DNA of 64,000 nucleotides from a virus: positions 33,238 through 97,237 of the IMG/VR virus record IMGVR_UViG_3300007535_000003; one strand, given 5' to 3'. Shown one piece after another: positions 7,609 through 31,686 of this stretch. How positions within the stretch are numbered: position 1 is the stretch's first letter; each line of letters starts with the position of its first letter. The notes under the pieces were generated by a model. That model did no database searches. It was given only the letters and a program-made list of their open reading frames with translations, and was not told where the DNA came from. The position numbers were made by a program, and so were the translations under genes.

Positions 7609-7728
7609 GGTCCGTTCGTCTAGTGGTAGGACGCCGAGCTGTTAATACTTTATACATGCACTAGCTATGTTAGAGTATCAACCATGGTTTGCCCCACGGA
7701 AACGGAGGTTCGACTCCTCCACGGACTG
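7609..7728 (+). ncRNA. tRNA-like RNA with an expanded anticodon arm
   Basis: Acceptor GGTCCGT/ACGGACT, D-arm GTCT-AGTGGT-AGGAC, T-arm GGAGG-TTCGACT-CCTCC; about 50 extra nt in the anticodon arm. Confidence 0.75.
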
Positions 7729-7733
7729 CTGTT

Positions 7734-7926
7734 AGCCATATAGCTCAAAAGTGTTACACTCAAGTTCCTAGGAATCGGCTGTAACCCCCAAGGATATGCA
7801 GAGGAGAATGGAACTTATTTGGACTTAAAATCCAATCCATTCTAGGCCACCTCACGCAGAGTCCGAGTAGCGGAAGAGCCCCTAATAAATTATAGGGAGA
7901 TCTGGGTTCGAGTCCCAGTATGGCTA
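7734..7926 (+). ncRNA. tRNA-like RNA with a ~120-nt insert in the D-loop
   Basis: Acceptor AGCCATA/TATGGCT, D-stem GCTC/GAGC, CCCTA/TAGGG arm, T-arm CTGGG-TTCGAGT-CCCAG. Confidence 0.75.
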
Positions 7927-8393: not shown

Positions 8394-8837
8394 ATGTGGA
8401 AATCTAACTCAAAGCAAAGCAAAGACAAAATAAGTAAGGGCAGTTTAGTAATTATTGACATGCCCGACTTTATTGGAGAATATGTACCTTCAATAAGTAA
8501 GGTAGCGTGTAGCTACAAAGAAAAGATGCTACATTTCTCTAATGTTAGCAATGCTTTTGGTAGCTTATTTGGTGAAGAACACCATTTAATAGAAGTACCA
8601 AGAGCAGTCATACTCTATAACAAGACACATTTTCTTAAGAGTGTATTAGAGCTATCTGAAGCATATAAAGAAGATAGCTTAGATTCTTTATTCTTTTACG
8701 GTCGTAAAATAGTACTACCAGTCCATGAGGGATACTTAATGCCGGTAAGTAAAATAAAGGATCCACACAAAAGAGGACTATGTTATAGAGAATGGGAAAT
8801 GTTAAAGACTAAGGGATATAGTAACCTTATAACCTAA
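8394..8837 (+). CDS. hypothetical protein
   Basis: 147-aa ORF in operon. Confidence 0.65.
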   Translation: MWKSNSKQSKDKISKGSLVIIDMPDFIGEYVPSISKVACSYKEKMLHFSNVSNAFGSLFGEEHHLIEVPRAVILYNKTHFLKSVLELSEAYKEDSLDSLFFYGRKIVLPVHEGYLMPVSKIKDPHKRGLCYREWEMLKTKGYSNLIT

Positions 8838-8898
8838 CTTAACTAACAAACGATTTACTTACGCTGCTAGCTAGGGCTTTAGCGGACTCGGGTTCGAT

Positions 8899-9519
8899 CA
8901 AAAGGTCGAAGTTAAACTGGGTGAATTCAGGGAAACCTAAGTCACAATGATAAGGCAACCCTGAGCCAAGCCCTTAAGAGGGAAGGTGCAGAGACTACCT
9001 GAATACAGGCTAGAGCGCCCAGCACTTAAAAGTGAAGAGATAGTCCGATACTCCTGAGAAATTAGGAGAAGAAGCGAGATGTAAATTCTTGACGTTTTGA
9101 TAAGGTTTCTTTTGTATATTTACCATTACGAGGTGTTATACTCTTCAATTCGTTAAGTATCATATCTATACGTCTACGCTTCTTGGGATGTCTGGAATTT
9201 ATGTAAGATAGTACGTTTATACATTTAGGTAAATAAGTATACCTCAGCTCATAATTAGTAAAATCACCTGATTTTTTAGTACAAATGAATCCATTATGAC
9301 CTGTTTCAAGTTTAATAAATTTTTCTATTTCCACAAGTAGGTCATATTCGTTATTACTAAAAGAAATAACAGGTGATCTTTCGCAATTCTTATGTAAACG
9401 TAAAAATGTTATCGTGCCGTCAGCATCAAAGAAACCTGTAATATATTCCCAACCCATATTTTTATTGAATATACGGACGCAGGTTTGAAATGTTACTGTT
9501 CCAGATGTTTTAACTATTG
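8899..9519 (+). mobile_element. group I intron in the tmRNA T-loop
   Basis: P1 with U.G at the splice site (TTCGAT/GTCGAA); P GAATTCAGGGAAAC 8923; Q AACCCTGAGCCAAG 8957; R GTGCAGAGACTA 8986; S AAGAGATAGTCC 9035; P3 CTGGGTG/CGCCCAG; extra P7.1 hairpin (IA-like); terminal G9519. Confidence 0.92.
9062..9457 (-). CDS. single-motif LAGLIDADG homing endonuclease, antisense within the intron
   Basis: N-terminal YITGFFDADGTI motif, 131 aa, located in the P9 region of the intron. Confidence 0.9.
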   Translation of the reverse strand: MGWEYITGFFDADGTITFLRLHKNCERSPVISFSNNEYDLLVEIEKFIKLETGHNGFICTKKSGDFTNYELRYTYLPKCINVLSYINSRHPKKRRRIDMILNELKSITPRNGKYTKETLSKRQEFTSRFFS

Positions 9520-9552
9520 TCCCGAAGGCTCCACTTATCTAAACACTGTATT

Positions 9553-9693
9553 ATGAAAGCATTAAAACTACCACGGAAGGAGAAAAAGAGACGTAAGAAG
9601 GAGATACAAAAGTATCTAAGAAATGTTCTTAAGGTAGAAGCTAATACTAAAAACATCCGATTATCGGAAATAGGATACAGGCTAGTAAAATAG
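9553..9693 (+). CDS. 46-aa highly basic protein in the tmRNA intervening spacer
   Basis: MKALKLPRKEKKRRKKEIQKYLRNVLKVEANTKNIRLSEIGYRLVK*. Confidence 0.45.
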   Translation: MKALKLPRKEKKRRKKEIQKYLRNVLKVEANTKNIRLSEIGYRLVK

Positions 9694-9812
9694 CCCGTTG
9701 CCAATGATAGCAGTAGGGCAGGTGAGGAGAAAATATTATAATTTCACGGAGGTTGGTAACTCAGGTAGCCCCTGGGGTGTAACCTGCCCTTTGTTTTCAA
9801 CGTTAAAAATAT

Positions 9813-9955
9813 GGGGCCTAATTGGTTTTGACGTTATGGTACCCAGTTAGCACGAAAGGTGTAAGTAATTTTTAAATGGCGAATCTGAAATGATGCAATT
9901 GCTTAGAGCAGCTGCTTAATCGGTGAGTCTTGGGGGACATTAATAGTCCCCCTTT
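9813..9955 (+). ncRNA. ssrA: two-piece tmRNA, coding (5') piece; tag (A)GESEMMQLLRAAA
   Basis: Starts GGGGCCTAATTGGTTTTGAC; GGGGCCT pairs with AGGCTCC including G3.U70; resume context TAAAT-GGC at 9878; tag ends GCT GCT TAA at 9919. Confidence 0.9.
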
Positions 9956-9960
9956 TTCTT
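9932..9960 (+). terminator. intrinsic terminator ending the tmRNA coding piece
   Basis: GGGGGAC/GTCCCCC stem followed by a T-run. Confidence 0.85.
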
Positions 9961-19112: not shown

Positions 19113-19294
19113 TGTATATAAAAGCATATAGGAAAGTTTCAAACAAATGTAAGACATGTGGGGGTGAAGGAAAAATTACCAACAAAAGGTATAGTTGGCA
19201 TAAAAATACTTGTCCTACATGTAGAGGTGAAGGAATAACGACTAGAGAAGAGGAAGTAAAGATTCCTCTTAGTCATCTTAATGATTATACCTAA
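19112..19294 (+). CDS. DnaJ-type zinc-finger protein
   Basis: Two CxxCxGxG repeats. Confidence 0.75.
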   Translation: MYIKAYRKVSNKCKTCGGEGKITNKRYSWHKNTCPTCRGEGITTREEEVKIPLSHLNDYT

Positions 19295-19747
19295 ATGGTA
19301 ATTTGTGTAATTGATAAAACTCACAGTAGAAGTAAAGATTTATATGAAAGATTGAAAGAGGAGTATACTGAAGGTAGGGTACTCTATTTAGCTTCTATCG
19401 ATAAGGTAGAAGAAGTCGCTACGATGCTAAAGATGTCAAAGAACTTTGGCTTAGCTAAAGAAGTAGAAAAAATTTGGCAAAGTTATAACGAAGCTATAGC
19501 AGATAATATCATAGACTATATTAAACATTTTAAGAACGAAGAAGATATAGTACTAGTCAATGTAACAAGTGAAAAGGATAGAGCTCTGTTTGTTGAAAGA
19601 TGCTCATTTGATGTGCATTCTATATTCTTGGAAGGAGCTCCTAAGAGCTACATACATGACACTGTACTAAACATAAGGATGAATATGACTTTACAAACTA
19701 GTAAGTACGATGATATATCTGCTAACAAAGAAGAAAGTACTGTTTAA
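19295..19747 (+). CDS. hypothetical protein
   Basis: 150-aa ORF. Confidence 0.65.
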   Translation: MVICVIDKTHSRSKDLYERLKEEYTEGRVLYLASIDKVEEVATMLKMSKNFGLAKEVEKIWQSYNEAIADNIIDYIKHFKNEEDIVLVNVTSEKDRALFVERCSFDVHSIFLEGAPKSYIHDTVLNIRMNMTLQTSKYDDISANKEESTV

Positions 19748-27152: not shown

Positions 27153-27404
27153 ATGAAAAAATATAATACATTTGTAACATACGCAACTAACGACAAGGGC
27201 GAAGATATCACAGAAGATAACAAATTAATATGGCATAAGTATAAAAAGGGTAGTAGAAAAGAATATGTAAGCGTATCTAAAAGAGCTCAAGATGGGGATA
27301 TACCTCAATTGAATGAACCTAATAGTAGAACTGTTTCATACTACACGAGAAATATACCTAAATTCGGCGAAGAGAGAACTGAGTTCATTATTTTTGAAAG
27401 CTAG
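27153..27404 (+). CDS. hypothetical protein
   Basis: 83-aa ORF. Confidence 0.6.
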   Translation: MKKYNTFVTYATNDKGEDITEDNKLIWHKYKKGSRKEYVSVSKRAQDGDIPQLNEPNSRTVSYYTRNIPKFGEERTEFIIFES

Positions 27405-27408
27405 TACT

Positions 27409-28386
27409 ATGCTATACGACACTGATAAACTTACACCTGTTACAGAGGAAAATATTTTAAAGAGAACTACTGAGTATGATATTTACTCTTACTATATAGG
27501 AAGAAAAGTACCAATAAATACTAAATTTAATAGTCCCCTAAGAAAAGATGATGATCCTTCATTTGGTTTATTTATGGCCAAAAAGACCAGGAGTCTATTA
27601 TTTAAAGATCAGGGTACTGGTATAGTAGGTAACTGTTTTAAGTTTGTACAATTATATAAACAATTAGCTACTTATAGAGATGCCTTAAATAAAATAAATA
27701 AGGATTTAAGTTTAGGCTTGTTAGAAAGGTCACAAAAAGGCTTACTAGTAAGGGACAAGTACAAGCCTAGTAGGACTAAGATAGCTGTAAAGAAAAGGAA
27801 TTTTACAAAATTTGATTTGGATTATTGGTCTCAGTTCTGTATTACAAGAGAGACGCTAAGGAAGTTTAATATATTCCCTATAAGTAAATTATGGATAAAT
27901 GATGCGGTATCCAAGTATTTTTATAGTAAAAGAGAGCCTATGTATGCTTATAGGATATATAATAAGTTTAAAATATATAGGCCACATAGTTCTAAAGATA
28001 ACAAGTTCCTAAATAACTGTAACAAGCACGATATACAAGGGTTCCAGCAGTTGAAAAAATCTGGGGAACTAGTTATTGTAACCAAATCCTTAAAGGATGT
28101 TATGGTTCTATACGAACTGGATTTTAGTTCTATAGCTGCTAACAGTGAATCTACTCCAATACCTAAAGATGTAATGTTAGATCTAAAGAAGAGGTTTAAT
28201 AGGGTGGTAGTGTTATATGATAATGATAGCACTGGTGTAAAGGGTATGATTGATATGAAGAAGGCATACAACTTAAAATGTATCTTTATACCCTTAGGGT
28301 ATAGAGCTAAAGATATAAGTGATCTTATAAAAAAAGTAGGTTTTAACAAAACTTATACAATATTAAACAAGCTACTTTATGGATAA
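27409..28386 (+). CDS. DNA primase (TOPRIM)
   Basis: SPLRKDDDPSF, TKSLKDVM, YDNDSTG, KDISD; likely start MLYDT. Confidence 0.9.
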   Translation: MLYDTDKLTPVTEENILKRTTEYDIYSYYIGRKVPINTKFNSPLRKDDDPSFGLFMAKKTRSLLFKDQGTGIVGNCFKFVQLYKQLATYRDALNKINKDLSLGLLERSQKGLLVRDKYKPSRTKIAVKKRNFTKFDLDYWSQFCITRETLRKFNIFPISKLWINDAVSKYFYSKREPMYAYRIYNKFKIYRPHSSKDNKFLNNCNKHDIQGFQQLKKSGELVIVTKSLKDVMVLYELDFSSIAANSESTPIPKDVMLDLKKRFNRVVVLYDNDSTGVKGMIDMKKAYNLKCIFIPLGYRAKDISDLIKKVGFNKTYTILNKLLYG

Positions 28387-30427
28387 ATGTATCAAAAAAG
28401 AGGAAATAGCAATTAGTCTAGAGCACTTAAATGCTATAACAGCAACCAGAACAGCTGTACTAGATCAAGGCCACACATATACATATATTTCTAATTCAGC
28501 TGTAGATCTTTTTAACAGGGTGATATCTTCATTAGCTAATAAGCTTACAAAAGATAAACAGGACTTATCAGAATTTAAAGCTAAAGAAGTTAAATCTGAT
28601 TTAGATTTAGATAGTATTAATAGGTTAGAAAGAAGAATAAAGATTACTTCAGAGGCTATAGATGTAAGTAAATACCTTAAAGGCAGGCCGTTCTCCAACG
28701 GCTATAAAATAACAACTGACCATACAGTAAATGAAACTAAACTTAGTGAAATACCTTTAAGTTTGCATATAGACAATAAAGGGAAAGCTCTTATATTTAC
28801 TAGAGCTTTATTGGGGAAATCAATAATACAGATATTAGAAGAGAGTGGGCATATTGGTCCAGTTAATATGAGATGTGCAGTGGAGGTTCTGCTAAATAAT
28901 TCTGATCTGATTACAATACCAAAGAACTATAAGGATCTATTGCCCCCAATATCCACACACTATGGGATAATTTCAATATCCACATACTATGGGATAATTT
29001 GTCGTTCAGAACAACAATCTATATGGACCTACATAGCAAAAGTTATAAAAATGTCTTCTGAGGACCTTGATTATCAACCCTATTTTAAAGAGATTAAGCT
29101 TGGTAGAGCTATAACAGCTATAATGGGCAGTGCTGTACCTAGTGCAGTAGTAGAAAAAATAGTGCAAGAAGTTAAGGACTTGGCAGATTCTGCTAATACT
29201 AACCTAGAAAAAGCTGTTAGTATAGTAGAAGGTCATGATATATTATTTTATTACAATAGGCATAATAATCTATTCTTAGAAAAATTGCCAGAAGGAGTTG
29301 TAGAAAGTGCCAATATTAATGCTCAAGAAAAAGGCGGATCATTAGCAGGTAGTTGTATGAACGGCTATTCTAATTATAGTAAGTTGAATTTTTATGCCTA
29401 TAATCCTGATAGAATTAAGTTGCTAGTTTTAAAGAGTAAAGTACCTAATAAAATCTTAGCTAGGAGTATTCTATGGTTACCAGATGATGGTAAGGTATAT
29501 ATGGATAGAATATATTCTATTTCAGAGACATGTGCTAGAATACTTAGGAAATATGCTAAGGATAAAGGGTTCATAGGTATACATCACAGCTCTGTGATAT
29601 CTGATACTGGGTATGATGCCAAATTTGTATTAGAAGACTTGTACGCACCTAATATTAAGCACTATAGACTCCCTTATTTAGACTCTCTAAACAGGAGAGG
29701 TTTTGTACTCACCAAGGATAACAAAGTCAAAGTTACATTATCTTATGGTCCATTTAATACCCCTGAGAAAGATAAATGGGTAAAAAGAAAAGTAGAAGAT
29801 GATGAAGTTAAGTATATTGATGAGTCGGATATTTCAAATAAGAATAGTCTTAATGTAGATAAAGATAAAATAGCAACTCTTACAAAAATAATAAATACTT
29901 CTAAAACAGAAGATCTGGATAATGAGGTAAGTTTTAACACTGATGCTAATATTAAAGCAAAAAAGGTAAGCTCTGATCCTAATTTAGAAGGCGTTATCAG
30001 TGATATTAATAAAATACTGTCAACAAGGTATGGGGTAAAGAGTCCACTACGGTCTAAAAACATGGGTATCAAAAGAATATTTAGTCAATACATGACTTTA
30101 AACAGTGTAACAAACAGAAACTTTTTTAACCGTATTAATGTAGACGAAGCAGTAAATACAAAAACATTCAATAACACAATTTGCTCTGTAGAAATTGGCA
30201 GCAAGGATGTTATATATAAGGATAAGCACTTAGTAAAGAATTTACTATTAAATCCTGATATAGATTTTTATGTAACAAAAAAGAATATTGTGACAGATCC
30301 TAATTATCTAAATGTGACTCAGTCAGGTCCCTATTGTATCATATTACATAAAAATAATATCTTTAAAGTTTTTGGTAAGAACAATATAAAAGAAGTAAGT
30401 ACCAATTATTACAAACATACGGCCTAA
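28379..30427 (+). CDS. hypothetical protein
   Basis: 682 aa with GSCM...ARSILW...YMDRIY...PYLDS conserved-looking motifs. Confidence 0.75.
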   Translation: MDKCIKKEEIAISLEHLNAITATRTAVLDQGHTYTYISNSAVDLFNRVISSLANKLTKDKQDLSEFKAKEVKSDLDLDSINRLERRIKITSEAIDVSKYLKGRPFSNGYKITTDHTVNETKLSEIPLSLHIDNKGKALIFTRALLGKSIIQILEESGHIGPVNMRCAVEVLLNNSDLITIPKNYKDLLPPISTHYGIISISTYYGIICRSEQQSIWTYIAKVIKMSSEDLDYQPYFKEIKLGRAITAIMGSAVPSAVVEKIVQEVKDLADSANTNLEKAVSIVEGHDILFYYNRHNNLFLEKLPEGVVESANINAQEKGGSLAGSCMNGYSNYSKLNFYAYNPDRIKLLVLKSKVPNKILARSILWLPDDGKVYMDRIYSISETCARILRKYAKDKGFIGIHHSSVISDTGYDAKFVLEDLYAPNIKHYRLPYLDSLNRRGFVLTKDNKVKVTLSYGPFNTPEKDKWVKRKVEDDEVKYIDESDISNKNSLNVDKDKIATLTKIINTSKTEDLDNEVSFNTDANIKAKKVSSDPNLEGVISDINKILSTRYGVKSPLRSKNMGIKRIFSQYMTLNSVTNRNFFNRINVDEAVNTKTFNNTICSVEIGSKDVIYKDKHLVKNLLLNPDIDFYVTKKNIVTDPNYLNVTQSGPYCIILHKNNIFKVFGKNNIKEVSTNYYKHTA

Positions 30428-30438
30428 ATTTTCAAAAT

Positions 30439-31686
30439 ATGCCAGATATAAGCTTGAGAATGTTAAAGAATGTGCTGTCTATACAATCTAAATCTACTTA
30501 CAGCAAAGATAGTAAAGACAATGATTTGCAGATAAGGAGGTACATAAAGTCTGTGCTGTCTTCTAATAATATTAAACATTTTGAAGATGGGTACGGCAAC
30601 ATATATGCTGTAAAAGGCAAAACAGAACTGTACGATTGTATAGTAGCTCATGTTGATACAGTACACAACATTAACAACAACGTAGAAGTGAATAGAAATG
30701 GGGATTACCTATATGCCTTTGACCCTATAAATGTTAAACAAGCAGGTATAGGGGGTGATGATCTTGTAGGGGTTTATATAGCTTTACAAGCTCTAAAAGA
30801 TAGGGATAATATAAAAGCTGTATTCTACAGAAACGAAGAGATAGGTAAACTGGGTAGTAAATTCTCAATAAGTAATAATAAGACATTTTATAGCAACTGT
30901 AAATTTGTTATACAAAACGATAGAAAAAATAACACGGATTTTATAGTTAAATCTAGTGGTATAGATATTTGCAGTAACAGTTTTAAAAAAGATGCTAAGA
31001 TATATCTTGACAAAAATGGGTATAAAGAAAGTACAGGTTTGTCTTCAGATATTGATACTTTAGTAAGTGGTGGTATAGGCATAAGTGCTGTAAATCTTTC
31101 TTGTGGTTATTTTAGGCCCCACTCTGATACTGAAGTTGTAAGTATTAGTGATGTAAAACGTGCTTACAGCTTAACTACAGATTTATTTGATAACTTGATT
31201 AAGAAATATAAACATACTTATACTCCCCCAAAAAATACTAATAATAACCAGTACTACTTTAGTGGTTATAACACAAATACTGGTATTGATGATGTATATG
31301 CTAAGCAGCATTCTTCAGAGTATAAAGAAACATTAAACAAGATTGATTCGACTAAGAAAAATGAATATAAACTTTTCCTTAAGCTTAAAGGTGTAGATTT
31401 CTACATATTGAAAAACCACGAAGATATTGAAGTTCCTATAAAAGGGCACACTTGTAGTGAATGTAGTAAAGAAGAAACTACGTATTTTATCCCTGATGAA
31501 AATAGGTTCTTCTGTATAAGCTGTAATAAGTTTATAAACAATGATTTAAATTTAAGGAAGAAACTAATTATAAAGGATTCAAAACACGTATTTTACCATA
31601 ATGGTATAAACAACAGATGGATTAGGGATAATGCTGTCTGGGATAATACTTTTGATTTCTATAGACACAAAAGATATGGAGAATAA
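30439..31686 (+). CDS. M20/M28-family zinc peptidase-like protein with C-terminal zinc ribbon
   Basis: AHVDTV, GGDD, EE.G..GS, DR, YFRPH; CxxC...CxxC. Confidence 0.85.
   Translation: MPDISLRMLKNVLSIQSKSTYSKDSKDNDLQIRRYIKSVLSSNNIKHFEDGYGNIYAVKGKTELYDCIVAHVDTVHNINNNVEVNRNGDYLYAFDPINVKQAGIGGDDLVGVYIALQALKDRDNIKAVFYRNEEIGKLGSKFSISNNKTFYSNCKFVIQNDRKNNTDFIVKSSGIDICSNSFKKDAKIYLDKNGYKESTGLSSDIDTLVSGGIGISAVNLSCGYFRPHSDTEVVSISDVKRAYSLTTDLFDNLIKKYKHTYTPPKNTNNNQYYFSGYNTNTGIDDVYAKQHSSEYKETLNKIDSTKKNEYKLFLKLKGVDFYILKNHEDIEVPIKGHTCSECSKEETTYFIPDENRFFCISCNKFINNDLNLRKKLIIKDSKHVFYHNGINNRWIRDNAVWDNTFDFYRHKRYGE

Follow-up and report, generated by a model that had tools for sequence, protein, structure and literature searches.

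The window analysed here is a stretch of 64,000 nucleotides (nt) from the 97,237-bp IMG/VR virus record IMGVR_UViG_3300007535_000003, and all coordinates are window positions unless another sequence is named. Between 8855 and 9960, a soil Crassvirales phage very probably encodes a permuted ssrA, the gene of transfer-messenger RNA (tmRNA), in which the T-loop of the acceptor piece is interrupted by a mobile group I intron. Sequence comparison supports the assignment of the gene as a phage-encoded, circularly permuted two-piece tmRNA of minimal design, because the two pieces covary, the tag frame is conserved and the gap from helix P2 to the resume codon is 9 nt. Its distinguishing feature is the group I intron. 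The predicted features are as follows (ORF, open reading frame; aa, amino acids).

8855..8898 (+): acceptor piece, exon 1, with the P2 3′ strands at 8855-8864, 8865-8872 and 8880-8883, then GGAC, the T-stem 5′ strand TCGGG and T-loop nt 1-6 (TTCGAT), ending at 8898
8899..9519 (+): group I intron, 621 nt, between T-loop nt 6 and 7
9062..9457 (-): antisense ORF of a putative LAGLIDADG-type homing endonuclease, 131 aa, after intron P9, with the motif GFFDADG
9520..9533 (+): acceptor piece, exon 2, with T-loop nt 7, the T-stem 3′ strand CCCGA, AGGCTCC and discriminator A9533
9534..9812 (+): intervening sequence (spacer), 279 nt, with a basic small ORF and a conserved structured element
9813..9832 (+): 5′ tRNA-like domain of the coding piece, with the acceptor 5′ strand GGGGCCT and the D-loop analogue AATTGGTTTTGAC; the ARAGORN 5′ domain
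9833..9868 (+): P2 5′ strands of the coding piece at 9833-9836, 9842-9852 and 9859-9868, pairing with 8855-8883
9878..9920 (+): tag frame, with resume codon GGC, 13 codons (GESEMMQLLRAAA) and TAA; its 3′ part is a P5-like hairpin
9932..9960 (+): intrinsic terminator-like element from a terminator scan, with a hairpin at 9932-9952 and a T run

The acceptor piece comes first in the gene, followed by the intervening sequence and the coding piece, and helix P2 links the two pieces. The acceptor stem formed by GGGGCCT (9813-9819) and AGGCTCC (9526-9532) is paired at all seven positions, including G3.U70, and CCA is not encoded after discriminator A9533. When 8899-9519 is removed, the T-arm reads TCGGG-TTCGATT-CCCGA, a 5-bp stem with a 7-nt loop. 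The 5′ side of the tRNA-like domain bears GGTTTTGAC, and GGAC precedes the T-arm; the 5′ tRNA-like motif is the one usually seen in tmRNA and recurs on other contigs in some 27 tmRNA genes of phages. The P2 segments of the window have 4, 8 and 10 bp with one G.U each, and RNAcofold reproduces the three inter-piece helices. Exon 1 of the acceptor piece is supported by its sequence, the cofold, the ARAGORN 3′ domain and contiguous homologous pieces in three related loci (L079, L080 and L081); its annotated start, 8855, is putative. Downstream of the tag there is a hairpin with the terminator and nothing more. This terminator-like element, whose hairpin has an equivalent in the relatives, is likely to be the 3′ end of the coding piece. 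The predicted mature RNA would thus comprise a piece of 58+3 nt and a piece of about 145 nt, about 205 nt in total.

The co-evolution of the two pieces was examined in related phages. Judged by DNA polymerase, the closest relative is a genome with 69% identity (G001), whose syntenic site has a homologous coding piece with the tag end ...LLRAAA on a contig that begins within the spacer. When metagenome contigs were scanned for the motif, complete genes without the intron were obtained from L079, L080/L081 (G001 type) and L082, and the T-arm of L079-L081 is contiguous (TCGGG-TTCGATC-CCCGA). Positions 6 and 7 of the acceptor stem are changed on both sides, GGGGCCT/AGGCTCC in the window corresponding to GGGGCTG/CAGCTCC in L079-L081. 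The three P2 segments likewise differ in sequence between the genomes and keep their complementarity.

P2a: window GTTA/TAGC; L080 ATAACAG/CTGTTAT; L079 GTAACAA/TTGTTGC
P2b: window AGTTAGCA/TGCTAGCT; L080 CAGTCAAC/GTTGATTG; L079 identical to L080
P2c: window GTGTAAGTAA/TTACTTACGC; L080 GACATAGA/TCTATGTC; L079 identical to L080

Ten inter-piece pairs are compensatory in the three-sequence alignment, and RNAcofold gives the same architecture in each genome, a tRNA-like domain with a long P2. The column-wise covariation table marks P2c as "broken" in the window, where MAFFT cannot align the unrelated helix sequences, and for this reason per-sequence folds and cross-duplex energies were used instead. 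The duplex of the cognate arms in the window has an energy of -31.1 kcal/mol, compared with -14.8 +/- 3.3 kcal/mol for shuffled sequences (z = -4.9), and the window arm combined with the coding arms of other phages gave -6.9 to -15.7 kcal/mol. Across the genomes, cognate arm duplexes ranged from -31 to -37 kcal/mol versus -7 to -16 kcal/mol for non-cognate ones, with z values against shuffles of -4.9 to -7.8. For L082 and L063, with the arm boundaries chosen here, the duplexes were no more stable than those of shuffled sequences. No further sequences came up when viral_contigs was searched with an exact 21-mer from the 5′ domain and with the 17-mer shared by the tags, and the 352-aa product of the neighbouring gene gave no relatives in a protein search.

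The tag is GESEMMQLLRAAA in the window, GEHESTVSRLLRAAA in L079, DDDESTVSRLLRAAA in L080 and ...DQSLRAAA in L082. According to ARAGORN, the resume codon and an in-frame stop are present and the tag ends in Ala-Ala; its end, LLRAAA, is conserved across the relatives. When the last 12 codons of L079 and L080 were compared, all three differences were synonymous (TCG/TCA, AGT/AGC and CTG/TTG), and the window differs synonymously from L079 at the shared Leu and Ala codons. This pattern fits a tag that is translated.

The insert at 8899-9519 matched the Rfam group I intron model RF00028 with 97.3 bits (cut-off, 50 bits) over model positions 1-253. In this alignment the P1-P2 part is misplaced on 8774-8830, and the conserved core P3-P9 lies at approximately 8942-9068. 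Intron P1 is formed by UUCGAU (8893-8898) and GUCGAA (8906-8911), 6 bp with U8898.G8906 at the splice site, and the last base of the intron is the terminal G, G9519. Joining 8898 to 9520 rebuilds a canonical T-arm. The ligated-exon sequence is supplied by intron-less alleles, namely L079-L081 and a contig from run X5. The latter is approximately 90% identical over 8830-8898 and continues with ACCCGAAGGCTCCAC directly after 8898, and because it reads across 8898 without the intron, the exon junction is fixed. The insertion apparently lies at position 7 of the T-loop, the principal site of introns in bacterial tmRNA genes (numbering deduced from PMC11915505). A blastn search of INPHARED (GenBank phages) matched the intron core only, which is similar to introns of other phages. 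The 131-aa ORF matched Pfam LAGLIDADG_1 with 21.6 bits (E = 4e-4), just below the cut-off of 23.1, and the PHROG 4645 endonuclease with E = 1.5e-5. Self-splicing of the intron is predicted. At the level of sequence comparison, these data establish the gene anatomy, the intron boundaries, the co-evolution of the pieces and the conservation of the tag.

An earlier, sequence-only reading of this stretch had proposed a phage-encoded, permuted, minimal two-piece tmRNA, and all the sequence features that it named are present where it placed them. The covariation that it proposed to look for in related phages was found as the 10 compensatory inter-piece pairs and the two-sided changes at acceptor positions 6 and 7, and together with the conserved tag and the 9-nt gap these bear out the proposal itself. 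Its acceptor stem of seven pairs with G3.U70 and its three further helices do pair and are reproduced by RNAcofold; its tag frame followed by a terminator agrees with the ARAGORN tag and with the hairpin at 9932-9952 and T run; and its estimate of a mature RNA of about 200 nt with no pseudoknot 1 agrees with the 9-nt gap and the predicted size of about 205 nt. It also held that the phage is crAss-like and that the window has no smpB; the major capsid protein confirmed the former, and the latter extends to the whole 97-kb record. It gave no name to the insert at 8899-9519, which is the group I intron described above.

The spacer between the pieces was aligned with those of L025, L079 and L080. 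The small basic ORF is located at 9553-9693 (+) and has 46 aa (MKALKLPRKEKKRRKK...), with homologues in L079 and L080 (57 aa); between these two, 9 synonymous and 10 non-synonymous differences were counted. It is possibly a protein gene inside the segment that would be removed from the mature tmRNA. The structured element (window 9697-9795 (+), L079:4650-4750, L080:2275-2375) has the layout CGTTGCCA..AGCAGGTGAGGA...GGTAAC, a hairpin and then GGGTGTAACCTGC. The hairpin at about 9760-9776 covaries, with C-G/A-U/U-A and G-C/A-U as compensatory changes. The element has no match in Rfam, and RNAalifold also proposes that its 5′ part pairs with the conserved tag end. This conserved element was considered as the true 3′ acceptor strand and rejected, as it pairs poorly with the 5′ strand of the window.

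On this basis the following course of events is proposed. The region would be transcribed rightward, probably within an early operon, and the intron would splice itself out, joining U8898 to U9520 and rebuilding the T-arm. Host RNase P would cut before G9813, and host enzymes would trim after A9533 and add CCA. The 279-nt spacer would be discarded, leaving pieces of about 61 and 145 nt that would be held together by the 7-bp acceptor stem and about 25 bp of P2. As the complex has G3.U70 and A73, charging with alanine by the host alanyl-tRNA synthetase (AlaRS) is expected. With host SmpB and EF-Tu the complex would enter stalled ribosomes, translation would resume at GGC 9878, and the appended tag would be (A)GESEMMQLLRAAA, so that tagged peptides would end in AGESEMMQLLRAAA. 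The fuller picture is a tentative one, whose chances we rate a little short of even: a natural pseudoknot-free tmRNA of about 205 nt, assembled from two RNAs by way of three separate processing routes (self-splicing of the group I intron, cleavage by RNase P, and trimming of the 3′ end with addition of CCA), active with the SmpB of a Bacteroidota host and adding its own ...LLRAAA tag, with the spacer serving as a second gene slot for a small basic protein and a structured RNA. What the phage gains is speculative; it may be the rescue of ribosomes when the host is shut off or when defence induces RNA cleavage, or the marking of proteins with its own tag.

Several points weigh against reading the gene as a working permuted tmRNA. 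There is no room for pseudoknot 1, since only 9 nt (TTTTTAAAT) lie between the end of P2 at 9868 and GGC at 9878; pseudoknot 1 is a usual feature of tmRNA, although the pairs covered by the merged model of Rfam are those of the tRNA domain only (PMC11915505). The conserved 3′ part of the tag also forms the P5-like hairpin, and its conservation could act partly at the RNA level. Four genomes whose DNA polymerase is about 50% identical (G002-G005) have no tmRNA motif, and the gene is therefore dispensable; low-threshold ARAGORN calls in these genomes appeared spurious. The spacer is long and contains an ORF, and the two pieces might come from separate transcripts. The intron-encoded ORF is antisense, and the intron might be unable to splice, in which case the copy would be a pseudogene. 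Splicing, RNA processing, charging and trans-translation are steps at the RNA level that we infer from the DNA. In addition, ARAGORN at its default threshold reported no tmRNA on either the native window or the merely spliced sequence, and the tmRNA families of Rfam had no hit on the native window in gathering mode or with E up to 10.

These failures of detection were analysed further. The sequence-only reading had suggested ARAGORN after removal of 8899-9519. Splicing by itself was not sufficient, whereas removal of the intron together with trimming of the 279-nt spacer to 250 nt or less yielded, at the default threshold, a permuted tmRNA with the tag GESEMMQLLRAAA. The domains called on the edited sequence are exactly the 3′ and 5′ domains of that reading, indicating that the ARAGORN failures reflect size limits and not poor domains. 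With -ps80, ARAGORN joined the right 5′ domain and tag to a poor 3′ domain in the spacer with 5 of 7 acceptor pairs, and this candidate was rejected. The permuted tmRNA model RF04321 (tmRNA_permuted; curated cut-off, 47 bits) had no hit on the native window, which carries the 621-nt intron and the 279-nt spacer. It scored 58.3 bits on the relative L082, and 35.3 bits (E = 8e-4), below the cut-off, over its full length on the intron-less L080. Default ARAGORN and Rfam thus miss a gene that is permuted and intron-split at once, and such genes will be under-counted in the annotation of phages and metagenomes.

Three other explanations were weighed. The window could hold a disabled copy from a real gene family, a tmRNA pseudogene whose intron no longer splices, with only the intron-less relatives being functional. 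The intron is indeed confined to the lineage of the window (L079-L081 and the X5 variant have none), its endonuclease ORF runs antisense and falls below the Pfam cut-off, and a P10 pairing is not evident in the sequence. Nevertheless, the full Rfam intron model is matched at 97 bits with the canonical P1 U.G and terminal G, and the exons, P2 arms, tag frame and terminator are all intact, with exons and arms mutually complementary; the same T-loop site, moreover, hosts hundreds of bacterial tmRNA introns (PMC11915505). We consider a disabled copy unlikely. Somewhat more improbable still is a decoy, in which the tRNA-like domain would titrate host SmpB or AlaRS and inhibit trans-translation of the host with the tag left unused. 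Such a role would suit a minimal RNA in which pseudoknots are absent, and a possible inhibitory role has been discussed for an RNA of mycobacteriophage DS6A that has only the tRNA-like domain (PMC4131195). A decoy would have no need for conserved tag features, yet diverged phages retain the resume context, the open tag frame, the LLRAAA end with its synonymous changes and the in-frame stop.

It is also conceivable that the halves are unrelated, the upstream T-arm being a 3′ leftover of a host ssrA or tRNA of the type of a phage attachment site (attP) and the downstream GGGGC... belonging to another gene, for a small RNA or a peptide. It is common for phages to have a 3′ fragment of ssrA as their integration site (PMC4383910, PMC9004378), and the halves lie 279 nt apart with an ORF between them. 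This idea is very hard to reconcile with the acceptor stem and all three P2 segments, where changes in one half are matched by compensatory changes in the other, and the same permuted layout occurs above the Rfam cut-off in other phages with short spacers. As for the attP remnant, no tyrosine integrase was found in the entire 97-kb record, which makes it unlikely, and we rejected it; the unrelated halves as a whole have hardly any probability in our judgement. The reading preferred here remains the permuted tmRNA with a T-loop intron.

The crAss-like (Crassvirales) identity of the phage is supported by its major capsid protein, which is 61-63% identical to those of RefSeq Crassvirales; matches to phage head-and-packaging families were likewise obtained for portal and terminase. 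Since smpB is absent from the entire 97-kb record, host SmpB must be used. Five public DNA runs from soil metagenomes contain the stretch. Elsewhere in the genome, a single ORF of 7,427 aa (36258-58541 (-)) is very large even beside the giant virion proteins of crAss-like phages, and it is followed by ORFs of 678 and 926 aa with no PHROG matches. The large terminase ORF has 1,045 aa (G000:C1 ~27,300-30,500; L044:8325-11462, -), with the terminase match restricted to its C-terminal part and residues ~326-551 matching helicase/primase families; it may contain an intein or an inserted domain. A tRNA-Asn(GTT) gene at 7609-7729 (+) is interrupted by 49 nt at the canonical intron position, 37/38; the Rfam tRNA model scores it with 44.6 bits and places an insertion of 51 nt. 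The insert is far below the size of a group I intron, which is odd in a bacterial virus. Next to it, a tRNA-like gene at 7734-7926 (+) (Rfam, 30.4 bits) has intact acceptor and T-arms, its D-loop region being enlarged by an insert of about 126 nt; it is not called by ARAGORN.

Permuted tmRNA in a crAss-like phage is already known, as RefSeq crAss-like phages carry such genes. The Suoliviridae cr114_1 (NC_055897.1, 19180-19622) and cr125_1 (NC_055900.1, 87913-88362) have annotated tmRNAs that coincide exactly with the RF04321 and ARAGORN permuted calls, and cr52_1, another RefSeq crAss-like phage, has hits with both. The sequence-only reading had inferred an independent permutation. This is not supported, given the permuted genes annotated in cr114_1 and cr125_1 and found in many IMG/VR phage contigs, and the rarity of the gene was overstated in view of these RefSeq genes and the published two-piece phage tmRNAs (PMC9004378). 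The genes of cr114_1 and cr125_1 share with that of the window the location in a Crassvirales phage, the position of the acceptor piece upstream of the coding piece and, judged by eye from the ARAGORN output, a long P2 that reaches near the resume codon and leaves no space for pseudoknot 1. They differ from it in having no intron, spacers of about 90-165 nt and the tag GNFYVTDYTRIAA, and their primary sequences are too diverged for blastn. ARAGORN and RF04321 detect both genes, whereas neither detects the native window gene. By eye, the spacer of cr114_1 (L086, NC_055897.1 ~19,180-19,622) seems to hold a tRNA-like sequence, and a T-arm-like GGAGGG-TTCGATT-CCCTCC seems to be present at the 3′ end of the coding piece in the gut crAss-like genes (L086 and L087).

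According to the IMG/VR motif scan, tmRNAs of both the standard and the permuted form occur in many large contigs of phages. L048, L065 and L063 are permuted according to both ARAGORN and RF04321, and in L048 and L063 the hairpin that follows P2 in RF04321 is also deleted. A tRNA-Ala or tRNA-Phe gene stands immediately after the coding piece at L048:1294-1367 and L065:3406-3485, and a tRNA immediately before the acceptor piece at L063 ~8608-8680 (-). Such flanking tRNA genes suggest co-processing of these other permuted phage tmRNAs in tRNA arrays.

For phage Melnitz a two-piece tmRNA is described, and of 133 unique phage tmRNAs 53 were called as two-piece by ARAGORN (PMC9004378). The Melnitz gene and the forms of Alphaproteobacteria, Betaproteobacteria and Cyanobacteria (RF01849-51, merged as RF04321) resemble the window gene as permuted ssrA whose intervening sequence is removed and whose pieces are joined via the acceptor stem and P2. 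The Melnitz gene is of the alphaproteobacterial type and linked to a glutamine riboswitch, unlike that of the window, which in turn differs from the Melnitz and bacterial forms in its intron, its 279-nt ORF-bearing spacer and its lack of a pseudoknot. The three bacterial models, RF01849-51, scored below their cut-offs on the clade of the window. The window gene belongs to a Crassvirales lineage of two-piece tmRNAs without any pseudoknot, which makes it a natural minimal substrate for studying the requirements of trans-translation, and its conserved phage-specific tag prompts one to ask what a phage gains from tagging during infection.

The tmRNA database of 2025 distinguishes three gene forms, standard, intron and permuted, and includes 79 phage sequences (PMC11915505). 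Its tables give the intron and permuted forms separately, with no permuted-plus-intron class. The two forms are thus known singly and the pair is not listed in this largest tmRNA catalogue; the combination of permutation and intron seems to be the new part. The value is moderate, as each component is known and crAss-like permuted tmRNAs are already annotated in RefSeq. Bacterial tmRNA genes of the intron form, discovered in Clostridium botulinum and now represented by 883 sequences (PMC11915505), have the T-psi-C loop interrupted by a group I intron. The window gene agrees with them in its T-loop group I intron, the U at -1 paired to the P1 G and the terminal G, and its LAGLIDADG-like ORF sits after P9, as in a minority of bacterial tmRNA introns. 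Unlike the catalogued bacterial intron forms, it is permuted and phage-borne, and its endonuclease ORF is antisense. A homing intron would here have spread into a phage copy of the gene whose T-loop is the known intron site in bacteria.

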